DNA of 64,000 nt, taken from the NCBI GenBank assembly GCA_002790095.1, contig PFUL01000184.1, positions 2,740-66,739 of the forward strand. The letters run 5' to 3'. How positions within the stretch are numbered: position 1 is the first letter of the stretch; each line of letters starts with the position of its first letter. The stretch is from Elusimicrobia bacterium CG_4_9_14_3_um_filter_62_55 (lineage in GTDB: Bacteria > Elusimicrobiota > Elusimicrobia > UBA1565). The position numbers and the translations under genes are program-made. A model generated the notes under the pieces. It saw only the letters and a list, made by a program, of their open reading frames with translations, was not told where the DNA came from and made no database searches. Of this stretch, positions 5 through 43,593 are shown in pieces.

Positions 5-104
5 GTGCCGTTAGCACTGCGCGCTGTCCGAGCGCCCAGCACAACGGCACTGCCGTGCCGTTAGCACTGCGCGCTGTCCGAGCGCCCAGCACAACGGCAC
101 TGCC
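5..104. repeat. Two tandem copies of a 50-bp unit (gtgccgttagcactgcgcgctgtccgagcgcccagcacaacggcactgcc) plus a partial third copy at 105-114 that runs into the pilA stop codon. The array is truncated by the window edge.
   Basis: Direct reading: two identical 50-mers at 5-54 and 55-104. Each unit begins and ends with complementary octamers (GTGCCGTT...AACGGCAC) and can fold. Unit length is not a multiple of 3 and the array lies downstream of the pilA stop. Confidence 0.85.
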
Positions 105-7207: not shown

Positions 7208-10026
<2,819 letters not shown>

Positions 10027-18424: not shown

Positions 18425-19229
18425 CTAATCGGAGGGGGTCTCGGGCGGAGAGAGCAGTTCCTCAACGAGAAAACGCGCCTTCAGCGGAATTACACCCCGC
18501 GCAAGGTAGGCTTCGATTGCCGCGAAAACCTGCCTCGGATCGGTGAGGCCAAGATAACCGATGAGAAATTCGACGTCGGCGCGAAAATCGCGTCAACGTT
18601 CTTCGTCGCGTCGAGGCTTATCCCCTCTCTAAGAAATTCCCAAGGACGAACAGATTGCGTTTGCGAAAGATCGCCGGAGATTCCACCAGGGCAGAAGCCT
18701 TCAGGCTCTCCGCTTCCGATAAGAACCACGGGTCTTCGAGTCGACCAATCCCGCGACACCATTCCGGTGCCGACTCTCCGAGCAGGAATTCCACGCTCGA
18801 GGCGTACAACGCCCGCACTCGCCGAGGGCAGTCCGGGTCCGGCGCGAGCGCGCATAGGCCCGGATCACGCAGACGGCGATACGCGTCGACGAATTGAAAC
18901 AGCCACAGCGTCCACGTTTCCTCCCCCTCCAGCTTGATCCGCAGCGAAGTCTCGGCCACCGAATCCGGACCGGCGAGCCAATGACGGGCAAGGAGCCTTT
19001 CGGCACCGGCGGACGAGAAGCCAAGCGCCGCAACGGTCGCCGTGATGGTAGACCATCGGGGGTCCGTCGCGCCCGACTCCAGTCGTTGGAGGGCACCGAA
19101 GGAGAGACCTGCGGCAATGGGGAATATTGGCTCGCCACATAACGGCCACAGAGCGTTGACGACGAACCTGTTTTATAACGTCTTTCCCCATTTGCCATCC
19201 CGAAGAAATCGGATTTTTTGAGAAGCCAT
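18425..19229 (-). pseudogene. Disrupted gene of unknown function: one reading frame broken by an in-frame TAA and two frameshifts
   Basis: Minus-strand translation starts at ATG 19227-19229 (MASQKIRFLRDGKWGKTL*), continues open for ~190 codons (...LWLFQFVDAYRRLRDPG...NFLERG*), then shifts frame twice (ISLDATKNVDAIFA | DVEFLIGYLGLTDPRQVFAAIEAYLARGVIPLKARFLVEELL...SD*). The track shows only fragments 18618..18959 and 18490..18855. Confidence 0.45.
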
Positions 19230-19248
19230 TTAAATTTCAGCACTTTTA

Positions 19249-19266
19249 GCATATCGCGCGATATGC
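19249..19266. promoter_or_regulatory. Perfect 18-bp palindrome GCATATCGCGCGATATGC in an AT-rich divergent promoter region
   Basis: Read directly; the reverse complement is identical. It sits ~20 bp upstream of the 19227-19229 ATG on the minus strand and ~115 bp upstream of the HNH gene on the plus strand. Confidence 0.6.
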
Positions 19267-19382
19267 AAAAAGTCCTTACATTTTAAGCGCTTCATGAAAA
19301 ATCCGATTTGGATCTCCCGCGGCAGGGAACAATTTCGGTGGCCGACGCGTACGAAGCATCAAAAGTACAGAGAGGGTCAGAC

Positions 19383-38382: not shown

Positions 38383-38399
38383 GAACCATTAGGGCCAGG

Positions 38400-39427
38400 C
38401 CCCTCTGAGTGTACTGAGTAGAACGTCTGCCGAATTCTAGACGAAGCTATTAATGAATTTGCGGAGCGACAGGTCACGCGAGGCGACCTCACGAATCCGC
38501 TGCACGGCCTGTCGGACACCACCGGGAGATCGATAACGGAGTCTCTCTGCGATTTCAGCCGATGTTAGCGGCGAAGACATGCTTAAAATCGCGGCGGTGA
38601 CTCCTTTCGCGTATCCGGCATGCCGGTCACGCCATGCGTTAATCAATCGGTCGATAGGAATTCCGAACTCCGCGCTGACAACGCGGAGAACACGTTCAAA
38701 TACTTCGTCGGTACGCACCACACCGACCGAGGCGTTCGCAGGCGAAGCTGAAGGGGAATTCTCGGTCTCGTACAAACCTTCCTGATCCAGCCAACCGTCG
38801 GCCGTTTCGATGAATTCCGAACGAGCCGTCGTAAATCGAAAGAAGTCTTCGGCGCCATCGGGCCCCGAAAATGGAGAACGAAGCCTACGGTTTCCCGACA
38901 GCGGCTCGGGCCGGTTCAGATAGAGTCCCTTCATGCTGCTCCACCGGTAATCGCGTGGGTCACGGACGATTCCTGCCTGCACCGGGTTCATGTGGATGTA
39001 GCGTCCAACCTCGAACACCGCCTCGTTGCTCAGCAATATCTTGGATTTAAATCGCCCCTGGAAGAGATGACCCACTCGGTTGTGAATTCGATTGAAGCGC
39101 GCGGCAAAATTACTATTCACGCGATGCATATATCTCCACATCTCGCCTGTGAGACTCTCAATCAGCAGGTGGAGATGATTCATCAATAGGCAACGCGCCT
39201 CGATTCGAACCCAACCGAATCGCAGGGCCTCTTCCATCGAGTCGAGGTACCGCCGAAAATCACGCTCCGACCGAAAAATCGGTTGACGATCGACGCCCCG
39301 CACCATGACGTGGTGGAAGGATCCCGCAAGATCAACCCGCTGTTTTCTAGCCATCGATTACCTACACGTACGAACGAACTTGAAAATCGTTCCATCTCCT
39401 CACCAGCACTCAGTACACTCAGAGGGG
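38400..39427. mobile_element. IS200/RAYT-like element bounded by perfect 20-bp inverted repeats CCCCTCTGAGTGTACTGAGT (38400-38419 and 39408-39427)
   Basis: The inverted repeats were read directly and bracket the transposase gene 38437..39354. No target-site duplication was seen. The gene is lower in GC than its surroundings. Confidence 0.7.
38437..39354 (-). CDS. Y1 (HUH) transposase, IS200/RAYT-like, with C-terminal HTH extension
   Basis: HHVMVRGVDRQPIF and NHLHLLI (HuH) motifs, and the Y...NPV region. Confidence 0.75.
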   Translation of the reverse strand: MARKQRVDLAGSFHHVMVRGVDRQPIFRSERDFRRYLDSMEEALRFGWVRIEARCLLMNHLHLLIESLTGEMWRYMHRVNSNFAARFNRIHNRVGHLFQGRFKSKILLSNEAVFEVGRYIHMNPVQAGIVRDPRDYRWSSMKGLYLNRPEPLSGNRRLRSPFSGPDGAEDFFRFTTARSEFIETADGWLDQEGLYETENSPSASPANASVGVVRTDEVFERVLRVVSAEFGIPIDRLINAWRDRHAGYAKGVTAAILSMSSPLTSAEIAERLRYRSPGGVRQAVQRIREVASRDLSLRKFINSFV

Positions 39428-40017
39428 TCTGTCCCCAATTTCCGGCGACTGATTCCCTTTTCTTGAAAAATCCATAGTTTTGCTGAATTTGAGTCCATAC
39501 GGCCCAATCCGAATTGGGCCGTTCGCTTCTGTCGCGAGAGAATGATCCGGCTTAAGATATTAAGGTAGCTATGATCCGATCGCTTCTCGCCCTGATCCTC
39601 TTCGTCGGCCCCGCGAATGCGGCGCCGGTCGCGTCGCGCGTCGCGTCCGCCGCACCCGGGCATCTCCCCGTCCTGGCTCCCTCGCTGGGTGCGGCCGGAG
39701 CCGCGACTCCCTCGCTTCTTTCCTCCCCTTCACTCGCCGAGGGCGGTCTCCCGAGCCTCGTCGCCCCGGTTTTTTCGGCGGAGTCAGCCCCGGCCGCCGC
39801 CTCGCCGGCAGCTCCGGCGCAGGAGCTCCGCCCGAAAACCCTTTCCGCAGCACACTCGGGAATTCTACCGGCGCGAGCCGTTCGCCCCTTCGCTCTGTTC
39901 TCGAAAGGAACCCCGGCGGCGAACCCCGCCGACCGAACCTCCCCTAGCGCGAAGGAAACCGCGGCGGCGATCGCCCAAAAGGCCGATCGCGCCCCGCCTA
40001 CCGAGTTGGAAAAGCGG

Positions 40018-41514
40018 ATGCGGACCGCCTTCGACGGGGGCGGGCCGAAATCGCTTCATGTCCTGATGACCGCCGGCGAAGCCAATCCCTACATCAAGAC
40101 CGGCGGCTTGGCTGACGTGGTCGGCGATGTCGGCCCGGGTCTTGTTCGCGCGGGACACAAGGTCTCGCTGGTGATTCCGCTCTATGCGTCGATTTCTCCT
40201 CAAGAGCACGGTCTGCGCCGCCTTCCCGGCGCCTTCGCGGTTCCCGTCGCCGGGCGCATCGAAACCGCCCGGCTCTGGACGAAGAAGGAGCAGGGCGTCG
40301 ATGTCTATTTCATCGAGCACGAAGAGTTTTTCGGACGGCACGGGGCGTACGGCTATCAGGGAGCCGACTACCTCGACAACGATGAGCGTTTCATCTTCCA
40401 CTCGCGGGCCGCTCTCGAGGCGATGCGCTTTCTCGACACGCCGCCCGACATCGTCCACGCCCACGACTGGCATGTCGGACTGATCCCCCCTTACCTCAAG
40501 CTGATATACAACAAGGACCCCTTCTTCGCGGCCACGCGCTCCGTGATGACGATTCACAACATCGCCTATCAAGGGACCTTCGCGCCGCAAACCCTTGAGA
40601 AGGCGGGCTTCCGTTGGGAGGACTTCACCTTCGACAAGCTCGAATACCACGGCAACCTCAGCTTCCTGAAAGCGGGAATCGCCTTCGCGGATGCGGTGAC
40701 GACCGTCAGTCCCAACTATGCGAAGGAAATTCAAACGGAAGAGTTCGGCATGGGCCTGCAGGGACTCCTCGCCCACCGCGCGCAGGAACTCATCGGAATC
40801 CTCAACGGCATCGACCCCGACTTCTACAACCCGAAAAAGGATCCCCGCATTGCGCACCACTACGGACCGGAAGACGTCGTCGACGGCAAGAGCAAAAACA
40901 AGCTCGACCTGCAATCTAAACGCGGCCTGGCGCGCAAACCCCATGTCCCCGTTTTCGGAGTCGCCTCGCGTCTCGCCGATCAAAAAGGAATCGACCTGGT
41001 CGCCCAAATCATCGAATTCATAGTCAAGAGGGGCGGTCAAGTCGTCATCACCGGCTCCGGCGACGCGAATCTTGAACAAGCAATCGACTCGATCGTGAAG
41101 CAGTATCCGAATGCCGTTCTCCGAAACCCCTTCGACACGATCTTCGTCCACACCGTCTACGCCGTCAGCGATTTTCTCCTGATGCCCTCGCGCTTCGAAC
41201 CGTGCGGCCTGTCGCAAATGATGGCGCACGCCTACGGCGGACTCCCCATCGCCACCCGAGTCGGCGGCCTCGCCGATTCGGTCATCGACATCGATGAAAA
41301 CTCTGAAGCCGGAAACGGCTTCTTCGTCCGAGACTTCACGGTCGACGCCCTGAAGGATAAAATCGCAGCTGCCTTCGCCCTCTACGACGACCCGACCAAA
41401 ATGACCGCCGCCCAACGCCGCGCCATGGCCGTAGACCACAGCTGGTCTTCCTCCCTAGACGCCTACAACCGCCTCTACCACTCTTTACTGGGGTCAGACC
41501 CCCGTAAAAACTAG
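40018..41514 (+). CDS. glgA: Glycogen synthase (GT5)
   Basis: Start taken at MRTAFDGGGPKSLHVLMTAGEANPYIKTGGLADV (canonical GlgA N-terminus). The track ORF begins at 39571, giving a 149-aa in-frame Ala/Pro/Ser-rich extension. Confidence 0.8.
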   Translation: MRTAFDGGGPKSLHVLMTAGEANPYIKTGGLADVVGDVGPGLVRAGHKVSLVIPLYASISPQEHGLRRLPGAFAVPVAGRIETARLWTKKEQGVDVYFIEHEEFFGRHGAYGYQGADYLDNDERFIFHSRAALEAMRFLDTPPDIVHAHDWHVGLIPPYLKLIYNKDPFFAATRSVMTIHNIAYQGTFAPQTLEKAGFRWEDFTFDKLEYHGNLSFLKAGIAFADAVTTVSPNYAKEIQTEEFGMGLQGLLAHRAQELIGILNGIDPDFYNPKKDPRIAHHYGPEDVVDGKSKNKLDLQSKRGLARKPHVPVFGVASRLADQKGIDLVAQIIEFIVKRGGQVVITGSGDANLEQAIDSIVKQYPNAVLRNPFDTIFVHTVYAVSDFLLMPSRFEPCGLSQMMAHAYGGLPIATRVGGLADSVIDIDENSEAGNGFFVRDFTVDALKDKIAAAFALYDDPTKMTAAQRRAMAVDHSWSSSLDAYNRLYHSLLGSDPRKN

Positions 41515-42412
41515 CGGATCAGATGCATGACGGCCTGTTTGGTTCGGCCTAGGTAGTCTCCGATCCAGCGCATCGATATCCCCTCCGCTCTGCTCCTGCG
41601 TGCGAATTCGGAGCGCCAAGCACGACGAGAACGGTCGCGCGCCTGTAACACCGCGCGGGCATCGATCTCTTTTCCCCGGATAACATCGCCTGCAATTTCA
41701 TCCAGGAAAGCGTAAACCTCCTCGCGGCGAGGATCGCCGAAATCCGACATCGCTGGATTCGCAGGCGCGACCGAACCGCGCTTCGCCAAACGCCGGAGAC
41801 GCTTTTCCATTCTGCTTCTGTAATCTCCGATCGAACCGAATATCTGCTCGAACTCCTCCACATTCACGATGGTTCTCGAACTCTTTCCTTCGATCTCCAA
41901 AAAACTGGACCATCGCCAGTCCCGGGGATGCTTCACGAACCCGGCTTTGACCGGATTTAAATCGATATACCCTGGGAGAACGAGCGAATGGCGATTGGTG
42001 AAGCACCGCTTCGCATTAAACCGCCGTTCGAATACGTGCCCCGTGCGGCCATATTTCCAATTGAAGTAGCAACTGTAGGCGGTCAGAACGCTCTGCATGA
42101 ACAGAGAGATTTCGGGCCCCTTCGCGCCGATATGATAATGATTCGGCATAGGACAATAACTAAGGATCGAGACAGCGAAGGAAGGAAGATATTTTTCCAG
42201 GAGATGGACGAAGCGGTCGGCATCAGCGCCGCATCGGAAGATATCCTGCCGATTTACGCCGCGCCCGAAGACATGATAGAGATGACCCGAATGAAAATCG
42301 CGTATCGGCCTAGCCACAACCCTCGTACGACCGTGCTATTCATTTAGTTCCCTCTTGTATTGCCAAACCCCCGGAACCTATCTATTCTTTACGGGGGTCT
42401 GACCCCAGTAAA
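41484..42412. mobile_element. Second IS200/RAYT-like element bounded by perfect 25-bp inverted repeats TTTACTGGGGTCAGACCCCCGTAAA (41484-41508 and 42388-42412)
   Basis: The inverted repeats were read directly. Each is itself a near-perfect hairpin (one mismatch in 12 bp). The left repeat encodes the last 8 codons of glgA (LLGSDPRKN*). Confidence 0.75.
41511..42317 (-). CDS. Y1 (HUH) transposase, IS200/RAYT-like, with C-terminal HTH
   Basis: HLYHVFGRGVNRQDIF and NHYHIG (HuH) motifs; homologous to 38437..39354. Confidence 0.75.
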   Translation of the reverse strand: MARPIRDFHSGHLYHVFGRGVNRQDIFRCGADADRFVHLLEKYLPSFAVSILSYCPMPNHYHIGAKGPEISLFMQSVLTAYSCYFNWKYGRTGHVFERRFNAKRCFTNRHSLVLPGYIDLNPVKAGFVKHPRDWRWSSFLEIEGKSSRTIVNVEEFEQIFGSIGDYRSRMEKRLRRLAKRGSVAPANPAMSDFGDPRREEVYAFLDEIAGDVIRGKEIDARAVLQARDRSRRAWRSEFARRSRAEGISMRWIGDYLGRTKQAVMHLIR

Positions 42413-42952
42413 ATGGAAATCGTCATCATTATTCTCGGTGTGGCCATACCGTTCGCGTTTTGGCAATGGCGTGAGGCGAAGGCGAAGAATCCTTCCAGCG
42501 CTTGGCCGGAACTAGCGCCTGCGGTGGAATTTAAGTTCGAAGATAAACCGGCGAGACTTAGCGGGAATTGGAAGGGGCATAACATGCGGCTTTCCTACGA
42601 TGAAAATTCGGGGGAGGCGATCCTTCAGGTCGGCGTACGCGGCCGCCAGGGGATGCGCATAGAACTCGGACCGAAAGCTATACTGGAAAAAGAAGCGGGC
42701 ATGATCGTCCACGATCGCGTCGACCTCGGTGATCGGCAGTTCGAGGAACGTTACTTGCTCCGGTCGACGCCGAAGGAAATCGGAGAGTCGGCCTTCGACC
42801 CGAACGTTCGGCAGAAAGTGGCGAATCTTCCCGACATGCGCATACTCGCCCAGGGCGAGACATTCGTCGTGCGCACCGACCCGGTCACGGACGGCGATCA
42901 CCTCCGTGAACTGCTCGACGTGGCGGCTTCGGTCGCCGACTCCATCTCTTAG
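42413..42952 (+). CDS. Hypothetical membrane-anchored protein
   Basis: 179 aa with an N-terminal TM segment (MEIVIIILGVAIPFAFW). Starts directly after the inverted repeat. Confidence 0.4.
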   Translation: MEIVIIILGVAIPFAFWQWREAKAKNPSSAWPELAPAVEFKFEDKPARLSGNWKGHNMRLSYDENSGEAILQVGVRGRQGMRIELGPKAILEKEAGMIVHDRVDLGDRQFEERYLLRSTPKEIGESAFDPNVRQKVANLPDMRILAQGETFVVRTDPVTDGDHLRELLDVAASVADSIS

Positions 42953-43125: not shown

Positions 43126-43572
43126 TTATGCGCCTTTGTCAACCCCGGCACGGCCTTTAAGGAGGCGTTGGCACTGCCGCACGCCCATGTCGACGCCGTA
43201 GAACTCCCGCAGGTGCTGCGAGAGCATCTCTCCGGTCCACTTCTTCGCGTCCGATCCGACCGCTTCCGGACCGCGCTCGAGATCGGAGCGCAGGAACTCC
43301 CTCTGTTCGCCGGTCAGCATGTTCGGGCGACCGGGGCGCTTCTTCTCCTGAAGACCCTGCACTCCTTCCCTCTCAAATCGTTTTACCCAGTATTCGACGG
43401 CGCGCGGGCTCTGGCCCCAGATCGCGGCGGTTTTATAGCAACTGAGTCCCCTGCAAACGGCCAGGACGCCGTGCAAACGATGATTGTAGCGTGAGTCGCC
43501 GTTGCGCATGATCTCCTGCCAAATGATGCGCTCGCTGCCGTCCCGGTCGCGAACTTTCAGGGGTTGAACCAT
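43126..43572 (-). CDS. IS630-family transposase N-terminal HTH domains only (DDE domain absent): remnant or domesticated regulator
   Basis: PGRPNMLTGEQREFL...WTGEMLSQHLREFYGVDMGVRQCQRLLK matches the IS630 HTH pattern. An AAGGAG RBS precedes MVQPLK. There is no room for a DDE domain before the next gene. Confidence 0.6.
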   Translation of the reverse strand: MVQPLKVRDRDGSERIIWQEIMRNGDSRYNHRLHGVLAVCRGLSCYKTAAIWGQSPRAVEYWVKRFEREGVQGLQEKKRPGRPNMLTGEQREFLRSDLERGPEAVGSDAKKWTGEMLSQHLREFYGVDMGVRQCQRLLKGRAGVDKGA

Positions 43573-43593
43573 GCTGAATCTCCTTGCTCGCAA

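Follow-up and report, generated by a model that had tools for sequence, protein, structure and literature searches.

Two probable TIRtrons, each a RAYT-like gene between its own inverted repeats, on either side of glgA in an Elusimicrobia genome

Genes resembling those of REP-associated tyrosine transposases (RAYTs), but with long terminal inverted repeats (TIRs) at their flanks in place of repetitive extragenic palindromic sequences (REPs), have been described as TIRYTs, and the units that they form with their repeats as TIRtrons (Di Nocera, De Gregorio & Rocco 2013, BMC Genomics 14:522, PMC3733652). According to the same work, many TIRs share the motif GGGGWSAS, some are self-complementary and some constitute repeat families of moderate abundance. 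Y1 proteins with a C-terminal Bac_DnaA_C, HTH_23 or HTH_28 domain were subsequently placed in subclass 2.1 of TnpA_REP and equated with TIRYTs (Quentin 2018, BMC Genomics 19:475, PMC6006769). Here we consider a stretch of 64,000 nucleotides from the metagenome-assembled genome (MAG) of Elusimicrobia bacterium CG_4_9_14_3_um_filter_62_55 (contig PFUL01000184.1, positions 2,740 to 66,739 of the forward strand), hereafter the window, in which two RAYT-like genes flank the gene for glycogen synthase, glgA, each between its own pair of inverted repeats. The results of our analysis indicate that these two units, hereafter A and B, are in all probability TIRtrons encoding TIRYTs of TnpA_REP subclass 2.1, and thus members of a class already known rather than a new kind of element.

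The perfect inverted repeats of 20 and 25 bp that the original prediction had seen around the two Y1 genes are exact, with 0 mismatches between the arms of either the 20-mer CCCCTCTGAGTGTACTGAGT (TIR-A, around the gene for TIRYT-A) or the 25-mer TTTACTGGGGTCAGACCCCCGTAAA (TIR-B, around the gene for TIRYT-B), and both genes lie on the same strand as it had stated, namely the minus strand (table 1). Beyond these cores, imperfect extensions bring the pairs to 32 nt at 91% and 31 nt at 94%, respectively. A sequence fitting GGGGWSAS is found at the outer end of the TIR-A arm on the 5' side of its gene (GGGGTCTGTCCCC, equivalent to GGGGACAG on the opposite strand) and in both arms of TIR-B (GGGGTCAG); the TIR-A arm on the 3' side, of which the outer imperfect part is ATTAGGGCCAGG, carries the variant outer motif GGGCCAGG. 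The inner repeat sequences of TIR-A and TIR-B are unrelated to each other. All repeats stand close to the genes, at 53 and 70 nt upstream in units A and B and at 17 nt downstream in unit A, the stop codon itself being overlapped in unit B, and the 5'-side arm of TIR-B stops 1 base short of the ATG of the open reading frame (ORF) at 42413-42952, hereafter ORF179.

The 25-mer of TIR-B folds, as had been proposed, in a near-perfect hairpin, whose stem of 10 bp contains a single mismatch and is closed by a loop of 3 nt (dG -6.7 to -8.9 kcal/mol, z -2.0 to -3.4). TIR-A was also considered as a REP-like hairpin and rejected as such, for its hairpin has 4 bp only and a fold energy no better than that of shuffles. 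No further copy of the 20-mer or the 25-mer is present in the window at up to 3 mismatches, shuffles being expected to yield 0, and a looser scan of the window with 5 to 7 mismatches detected no additional copy of either. A dip in GC content (0.50-0.58 vs 0.61-0.63) spans both Y1 units and excludes glgA, so that the lower-GC patch previously reported holds for the units and not for the gene between them.

The two proteins score above the cut-off of Pfam Y1_Tnp (25.5 and 27.3 bits vs 23) and under that of the NCBIfam equivalog REP_Tyr_transpos (NF047646; 74.8 and 44.4 bits vs 80). The HUH motif noted earlier in both is H60-L-H62 in TIRYT-A and H60-Y-H62 in TIRYT-B, and the catalytic tyrosine, Y119 and Y117 respectively, lies within the motif YIxxNP. 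In a 31-sequence alignment, H60, H62 and the tyrosine are invariant, and variation is absent or almost so at the next asparagine and in a GHxFQxR motif; Y117 of TIRYT-B aligns with Y115 of Escherichia coli TnpA_REP, and its asparagine with the metal ligand N119 of the latter. TIRYT-A and TIRYT-B share 38% identity over their first ~140 residues, corresponding to the catalytic domain, and are unrelated beyond, which together with their unrelated inner repeats sustains the proposal that the two units have different specificities.

Searches of the PDB with single sequences were nearly blank, and matches needed a family profile, the N-terminal half of which retrieved TnpA_REP (4ER8) at E 1e-6 and the C-terminal half domain IV of DnaA (2HCB, 1L8Q, 1J1V and 3PVP) at E from 4e-14 to 1e-11. 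The AlphaFold models of the two proteins (predicted local distance difference test, pLDDT, of 87.6 and 90.3) both have TnpA_REP 4ER8 as top PDB match (template modelling score, TM, of 0.71-0.73), in agreement with the suggestion that they are related to RAYTs and not to classical IS200/IS605 transposases. The C-terminal domain in the model of TIRYT-A superposes on 1J1V, namely DnaA domain IV with a DnaA box, with a TM of 0.83 and a root mean square deviation of 1.5 Å, and TIRYT-A matches Bac_DnaA_C over the full model of that domain (E 0.0018); the C-terminal helix-turn-helix (HTH) predicted for both proteins is therefore firm only for this one of 305 aa. The C-terminal domain of TIRYT-B has the same helix order and ends ~8 residues into the would-be recognition helix. 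The family to which both proteins belong is large, with 11,554 clusters at 50% identity (E<=1e-10). One public record from 'Elusimicrobia bacterium CG1_02_63_36' (P0001) is 100% identical to TIRYT-A over the aligned 289 aa, which are its entire length, its start being placed 16 residues after the ATG that we adopt. Because the longer form recovers the conserved M-A-R start, R6 and H15 of the family, the deposited annotation is probably truncated at its N-terminus.

Table 1. Coordinates of the two units and of glgA in the window.
Feature	Position	Strand	Perfect repeat or product	Remarks
TIR-A arm, 3' side of TIRYT-A gene	38388..38419		20-mer core, 38400-38419 (+)	Inner direct repeat CTGAGT-gta-CTGAGT
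TIRYT-A gene	38437..39354	-	305 aa	HUH/Y1, RAYT-like (H60, H62, Y119, N123), with C-terminal DnaA-domain-IV-like HTH at ~aa 215-304
TIR-A arm, 5' side of TIRYT-A gene	39408..39439		20-mer core, 39408-39427 (-)	
glgA	39571..41514	+		Native gene; last 9 codons and stop within TIR-B
TIR-B arm, 3' side of TIRYT-B gene	41484..41514		Hairpin 25-mer, 41484-41508 (+)	With GGGGTCAG; overlaps glgA 3' end and TIRYT-B stop
TIRYT-B gene	41511..42317	-	268 aa	GTG start; HUH/Y1, RAYT-like (H60, H62, Y117, N121), with short helical C-terminal domain
TIR-B arm, 5' side of TIRYT-B gene	42382..42412		Hairpin 25-mer, 42388-42412 (-)	

In comparison with the systems described previously, the properties above are those of TIRYTs: Y1 catalytic residues, long TIRs instead of REPs with a GTAG tag, the GGGGWSAS motif and, in TIRYT-A, a C-terminal HTH of the DnaA type. 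As in other TIRtrons, the HUH/Y1 protein is longer than RAYTs owing to its C-terminal Bac_DnaA_C/HTH part, TIRs of 20-40 nt lie at short fixed distances from the gene with GGGGWSAS at their ends, the repeat is self-complementary in some units (here B), several TIRYTs can occur per genome, each with its own repeats. In some genomes the repeats are dispersed as solo, dimeric or grouped copies, the solo ones in low to moderate number; here a single solo TIR-A is seen in ~74 kb of host. Nothing essential is different; the minor differences are the host, which is new at the phylum level (an Elusimicrobia MAG), the variant outer motif of the downstream TIR-A arm and the shortened C-terminal domain of TIRYT-B.

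REPtrons (Nunvar 2010; Bertels & Rainey 2011; Ton-Hoang 2012; Messing 2012, PDB 4ER8) share with our units the catalytic fold with its HUH, Tyr and Asn residues, the location of the gene between inverted copies of the presumed target sequence, the single-copy state (in the window) and the presence of solo repeats at gene ends between convergent genes, while the imperfect hairpin of TIR-B is REP-like. However, the present units have no GTAG-tagged REP, contain an extra DnaA-IV domain of ~100-150 aa (firmly so in TIRYT-A), fall below the REP_Tyr_transpos cut-off and have no detectable high-copy population of REPs or REPINs in the ~74 kb of host examined, whereas the REPs around canonical RAYT genes number tens to hundreds per genome, with over-representation of the flanking 16-mers. 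The designation of REPtron-like given to them originally is appropriate insofar as the inverted repeats belong to the units, even if these are not canonical REPtrons. IS200/IS605 elements such as IS608 and ISDra2 also have the HUH/Y1 fold, ends containing hairpins and insertion without obvious target duplication, whereas they have no terminal inverted repeats, both their end hairpins lie on the same strand, and their TnpA is of ~130-155 aa, has no HTH, is often accompanied by tnpB and usually occurs in multiple copies; our units have TIRs, proteins of 268 and 305 aa with an additional C-terminal domain, a single copy each in the window and no adjacent tnpB. Finally, domain IV of DnaA (PDB 1J1V, 3PVP) shares its fold with the C-terminal domain of TIRYT-A, which differs in having no AAA+ or oligomerisation domains; moreover, the signature residues of the DnaA recognition helix are not conserved and the flanking repeats are unlike the DnaA box TTATNCACA.

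Most of the homologous loci examined show the same arrangement, with inverted repeats of 14-28+ nt on both sides of the gene and at comparable distances from it at L007, L009, L010, L013, L018/19 and L020-22. These repeats mostly start with GGGGTCA(G/C), and GGGGWSAS opens the TIRs of L010, L013, L018/19 and L020-22. At L016/17 the downstream arm alone is kept, flanking repeats are absent in the context fetched for L015, and that of L014 is too short to judge. Direct sub-repeats occur in the inner part of several arms, for example CTGAGT-gta-CTGAGT with a period of 9 in the window, twice ACACTTTT in L009, twice TTTATCGAG in L010 and twice ATTTGTC in L021. The TIRtron that encodes P0070 is a unit of 1014 bp found in 100% identical copies, with three different sequences adjoining its left end; the identity starts at the left TIR (AAA followed by GGGGGTCAGG), and L020 contains one full, one truncated and one 81% identical partial copy in tandem. 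Given these identical units in different flanks and the tandem copies, some TIRtrons would seem to behave as active insertion sequences.

Further observations concern the repeats of relatives. A second TIRYT is kept at one site in L009 and L016, the two contigs having in common the order HhH-GPD, TIRYT and FtsX/ABC transporter; the TIRYTs are 38% identical and the adjoining FtsX/ABC-transporter DNA is 79% identical, and L016 has lost the upstream arm and retains in the downstream one the sub-repeats AAGTGTAA and the end CAGGCACC. A stutter of the outer end is visible in L021 (GACCCCCGTTAAT GACCCCCGTTGC, 2455-2480) and in the solo TIR-A of L011 described below (ACTGTCCCCAA ACTCTGTCCCCGAA, 7996-8030), and such stutters may be traces of the joining reaction. 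When the GTDB representative genomes, a collection that does not include the host genome, were scanned with the 25-mer carrying Ns at its mismatch positions, six perfect-palindrome relatives were found (in CPR, that is candidate phyla radiation, actinomycete and clostridial MAGs), one per 8-kb locus, with a Y1 gene near that of L003 only, together with related hairpins. In this Saccharibacteria MAG two hairpins in tandem, TTTAGCAGGGGTCTGACCCCTG (7410-7465), come after the Y1 gene, and a related solo hairpin lies 5 kb off (2308-2332); hairpins of the type GGGGTCWGACCCC, resembling TIR-B, thus accompany Y1 genes in CPR bacteria too. The five other, unrelated MAGs have one perfect-palindrome version each, which is above chance for a pattern of 22 bases.

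The history of unit A can be followed in another relative, of which a short contig (L007) encodes a protein 70% identical to TIRYT-A in the same surroundings, its gene being flanked by the 3' end of the ATP-grasp gene and, opposite to it, by the leader and N-terminal extension of glgA. Between the window and L007, synonymous sites of the TIRYT-A gene are saturated (proportion of synonymous differences, pS, of 0.74), with a nonsynonymous divergence (dN) of 0.20 and a ratio of nonsynonymous to synonymous rates (dN/dS) of ~0.07. The TIR-A repeats are identical at 19/20 and 34/36 positions, and the adjoining spacers at 28/51 and 5/15. A third copy of the repeat is found at the end of the L007 contig, inside the homolog of the N-terminal extension of glgA. 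These comparisons show that unit A has been retained at one site, with purifying selection acting on both gene and repeats, until synonymous saturation, and the synteny provides for this unit the single-copy, vertically inherited gene that characterizes RAYTs, kept here at one site across diverged lineages.

Copies of the repeats elsewhere in the genome had been named originally among the checks to be made. Scanning a metagenome collection that contains only part of the host organism, so that absence elsewhere is not informative, with an 18-mer of TIR-A recovered, besides the element (L012), only a single solo copy, carried by a contig of 87.8 kb (L011). The latter is a perfect 20-mer within a copy of ~36 nt and occupies the 92 nt that separate two convergent genes, one for a serine hydrolase and the other purH; no Y1 gene is present within 9.7 kb. 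Because the purH protein of this contig is identical to a protein of the window's own MAG, the host genome contains at least one dispersed solo TIR-A, in a position typical of REPs. In total, the ~74 kb of host sequence hold three copies of TIR-A and two of TIR-B.

A close relative, L023, with an ATP-grasp protein 89% identical and a GlgA 73% identical over its C-terminal half, provides a site free of both elements, of the kind that had been sought. Its contig presents the order Peptidase_Mx, ATP-grasp gene, 162-nt spacer, glgA, response-regulator gene (-) and homolog of ORF179, and contains neither of the Y1 genes and neither of the repeats; the place of unit B is occupied by the response-regulator gene. 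Since L023 keeps the same backbone without either element, glgA is native and not cargo, and both units are insertions or lineage-specific residents. The original description of units enclosing glgA finds no support, the gene being at the same place in the relative that has neither of them.

The 3' end of glgA bears the mark of unit B. The left 25-mer had been considered to encode the last 8 codons and the stop of this gene; it does encode L639-K646 but nothing further, the codon for N647 and the stop TAG (41509-41514) falling where the repeat is extended imperfectly, and the stop overlaps that of the convergent TIRYT-B gene by 4 nt. GlgA orthologs have just 1-3 residues after a conserved LL (ending in LYHALLK, LYRALLNR or LYRSLLSRE), and the longer protein of the window ends in LYHSLLGSDPRKN (LLGSDPRKN), everything from LL onward being encoded by TIR-B. 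Because the orthologs terminate so soon after LL, insertion of unit B seems to have rewritten the last codons of glgA, adding ~7 residues past the conserved core and leaving this core untouched. A repeat likewise overlaps the 3' end of a neighbour in L010, where the neighbour is the ATP-grasp gene. Given that the TIRYT of L010 is oppositely oriented beside this orthologous ATP-grasp gene (51% identical), an inversion switch was considered and discarded, as the TIRYTs are only 35% identical and the TIRs unrelated; two insertions that took place independently at a favoured gene-end site are the likelier explanation. The stretch of 70 nt separating the start of TIRYT-B from its upstream TIR was also compared with the native promoter of ORF179 in L023, and the idea that it represents this promoter was abandoned since the similarity is not significant (p = 0.7).

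At its other end, glgA is preceded by a conserved block (window 39490-39568; L007 ~300-400; L023 4100-4180) with a hairpin, ACGGCCCAAT...ATTGGGCCGT, followed by CCGGCTTAAGATATTAAGG just before the start codon. This block is kept in relatives with and without TIRtron A, its hairpin being changed in the relatives, and possibly serves glgA as a leader or in regulation. The gene itself begins with an extension of ~150 aa (window 39571-40020), present also in related Elusimicrobia, with a start resembling a signal peptide (MIRSLLALILFVGPANA), abundant Ala and Pro and 73% GC; such an extension is odd for a cytoplasmic glycogen synthase, and the gene of L023 is called as two overlapping pieces.

Taken together, the relative free of elements, the retained element with its near-identical repeats and the solo repeat speak in favour of the repeats as functional targets, and of a system closer to a long-term resident of the RAYT kind than to a short-lived insertion sequence. 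Several points weigh against this reading or against the assignment to TIRtrons. The C-terminal domain of TIRYT-B compares only weakly with the family HTH (hhalign probability of 14% over 24 columns), and unit B may be partly decayed, given that this domain looks truncated. Within the window, to which the search for it in this organism was confined, TIR-B has no copy other than its two arms, and the copy numbers given above rest on ~74 kb of host and not on the whole genome. The inner direct sub-repeats are significant with respect to shuffles in 4/8 repeat families only, and are a lead, not a rule. The spacer of L023 holds the sequence TTAGGGCGAGG, similar to the imperfect outer stretch given above for one of the TIR-A arms; this leaves the exact boundary of unit A ambiguous, and past loss, instead of a site never occupied, could account for the state of L023. 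Finally, the works found on TIRYTs are the two computational analyses cited above, which include no biochemistry, and the cleavage site, strand and substrate form of these enzymes are all inferred.

The alternative that survives best is that the units are ordinary autonomous insertion sequences, with a Y1 transposase and true TIRs, which move only as whole units and arrived by recent selfish insertion. The absence of both units from L023, their GC content lower than that of the surroundings, the presence of an IS630-like transposase fragment 0.7 kb away and the behaviour of the P0070 TIRtron, with identical copies in different flanks, bounded by the TIR where the boundary is readable, and partial copies in tandem, are all compatible with it. 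We nevertheless regard this alternative as unlikely, for each unit is single-copy in the window, unit A has occupied the same site across synonymous saturation with a low dN/dS, a persistence unusual for insertion sequences, and the solo repeat found elsewhere in the genome without a gene fits better with mobilisation of repeats in trans.

It is very improbable that the repeats are only regulatory, serving as operators or terminators bound by the HTH of a protein that would be a DNA-binding factor and no longer move DNA. The fixed short distances between repeats and genes, the bona fide DnaA-IV fold of TIRYT-A for binding double-stranded DNA and the outer palindrome of TIR-A, which scores as a weak terminator-like site, could be so explained. 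The catalytic residues are, however, invariant across the aligned members of the family, the solo repeat lies far from any Y1 gene, the whole unit shows polymorphism of presence and absence, and relatives are multi-copy; moreover, terminator-like sites are not enriched in the region (4 vs 5.1 expected in shuffles), and intrinsic terminators were discarded on this basis. Scans of the window for Rfam families and tRNAs revealed nothing at the locus. That the two units are the ends of a composite transposon with glgA as cargo, as the two same-strand Y1 genes flanking it might suggest, is ruled out for practical purposes by the synteny of L023, in which glgA has the same neighbours without either unit, and it conflicts also with the unrelated inner repeats, the resemblance of the two proteins over the catalytic domain only and the conservation of the glgA upstream leader in L007 and L023.

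On the preferred reading, that of two TIRtrons, each unit consists of a TIRYT gene and the terminal inverted repeats on which its product would act, and both are insertions into a conserved backbone formed by Peptidase_Mx, the ATP-grasp gene, glgA and ORF179. Unit A would have arrived by transposition of the whole unit, as related TIRtrons still seem to do, and would now be a resident, single-copy system similar to RAYTs. The HUH domain is predicted to cut single-stranded DNA at or beside the conserved module of GGGGWSAS or hairpin, and the C-terminal HTH to recognise the inner section of the repeat, specific to each element and formed in unit A by a direct repeat spaced 9 bp. From time to time the enzyme may also bring solo repeats to gene ends, by copying or moving them, in the way that RAYTs seed REPINs. 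Since the arms are inverted, identical hairpins come to lie on the two opposite strands, and excision of the whole unit in the manner of IS608 would be impossible for a Y1 enzyme of strict strand specificity.

A tentative proposal, to which we give a minor chance of being correct, is that the ends of TIRtrons are bipartite. The outer GGGGWSAS module, sometimes a hairpin and conserved across phyla, would be read by the HUH/Y1 domain, whereas the inner, lineage-specific module would be read as double-stranded DNA by the fold of DnaA domain IV, much as DnaA reads arrays of its 9-mer boxes. This inner module is often made of two direct repeats spaced 7-9 bp, CTGAGTGTA/CTGAGT here and the pairs given above for L009 and L010.

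Additional features of the window lie close to the units or at a distance from them. A promoter-like sequence, TTGCCA-17-TATTCT, is present at 42360-42388 (+) inside TIRtron B, facing out toward the upstream TIR and ORF179, and is a consensus match only. At 43126-43593 (-), 0.7 kb from TIRtron B, an ORF of 155 aa with matches to HTH_32, HTH_29, HTH_23 and HTH_28 resembles an IS630-type transposase reduced to its N-terminal, DNA-binding part, the catalytic domain being absent; with this fragment so near to TIRtron B, the stretch seems to hold the remains of several mobile elements. Elsewhere, a 60-nt unit is repeated in three tandem copies at 8152-8331 (two perfect, one at 72%), a 50-nt unit in two perfect copies at the very start of the window (5-104), and an AT-rich palindrome of 104 nt, with 52-nt arms 81% complementary and no spacer, stands out at 19206-19309 in a genome that is otherwise GC-rich.

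The TIRYT family is very large and widespread, and known from bioinformatic work. The locus described here offers a compact natural comparison for its study, since it combines a relative free of the elements, a relative that has kept one of them with near-identical repeats in spite of synonymous saturation and, within the host's own genome, a solo repeat. In glgA it also offers an example of a housekeeping gene with a 3' end that such repeats can rewrite, the conserved core being left unharmed, and the tandem sub-repeats within the TIRs suggest a candidate binding site for the DnaA-like domain. If the ends of TIRtrons were truly bipartite, a transposase acting on single strands would here locate its ends, and might even melt them, by means of the DNA-binding domain of a replication initiator, a situation that would bear on the question posed by Quentin et al.

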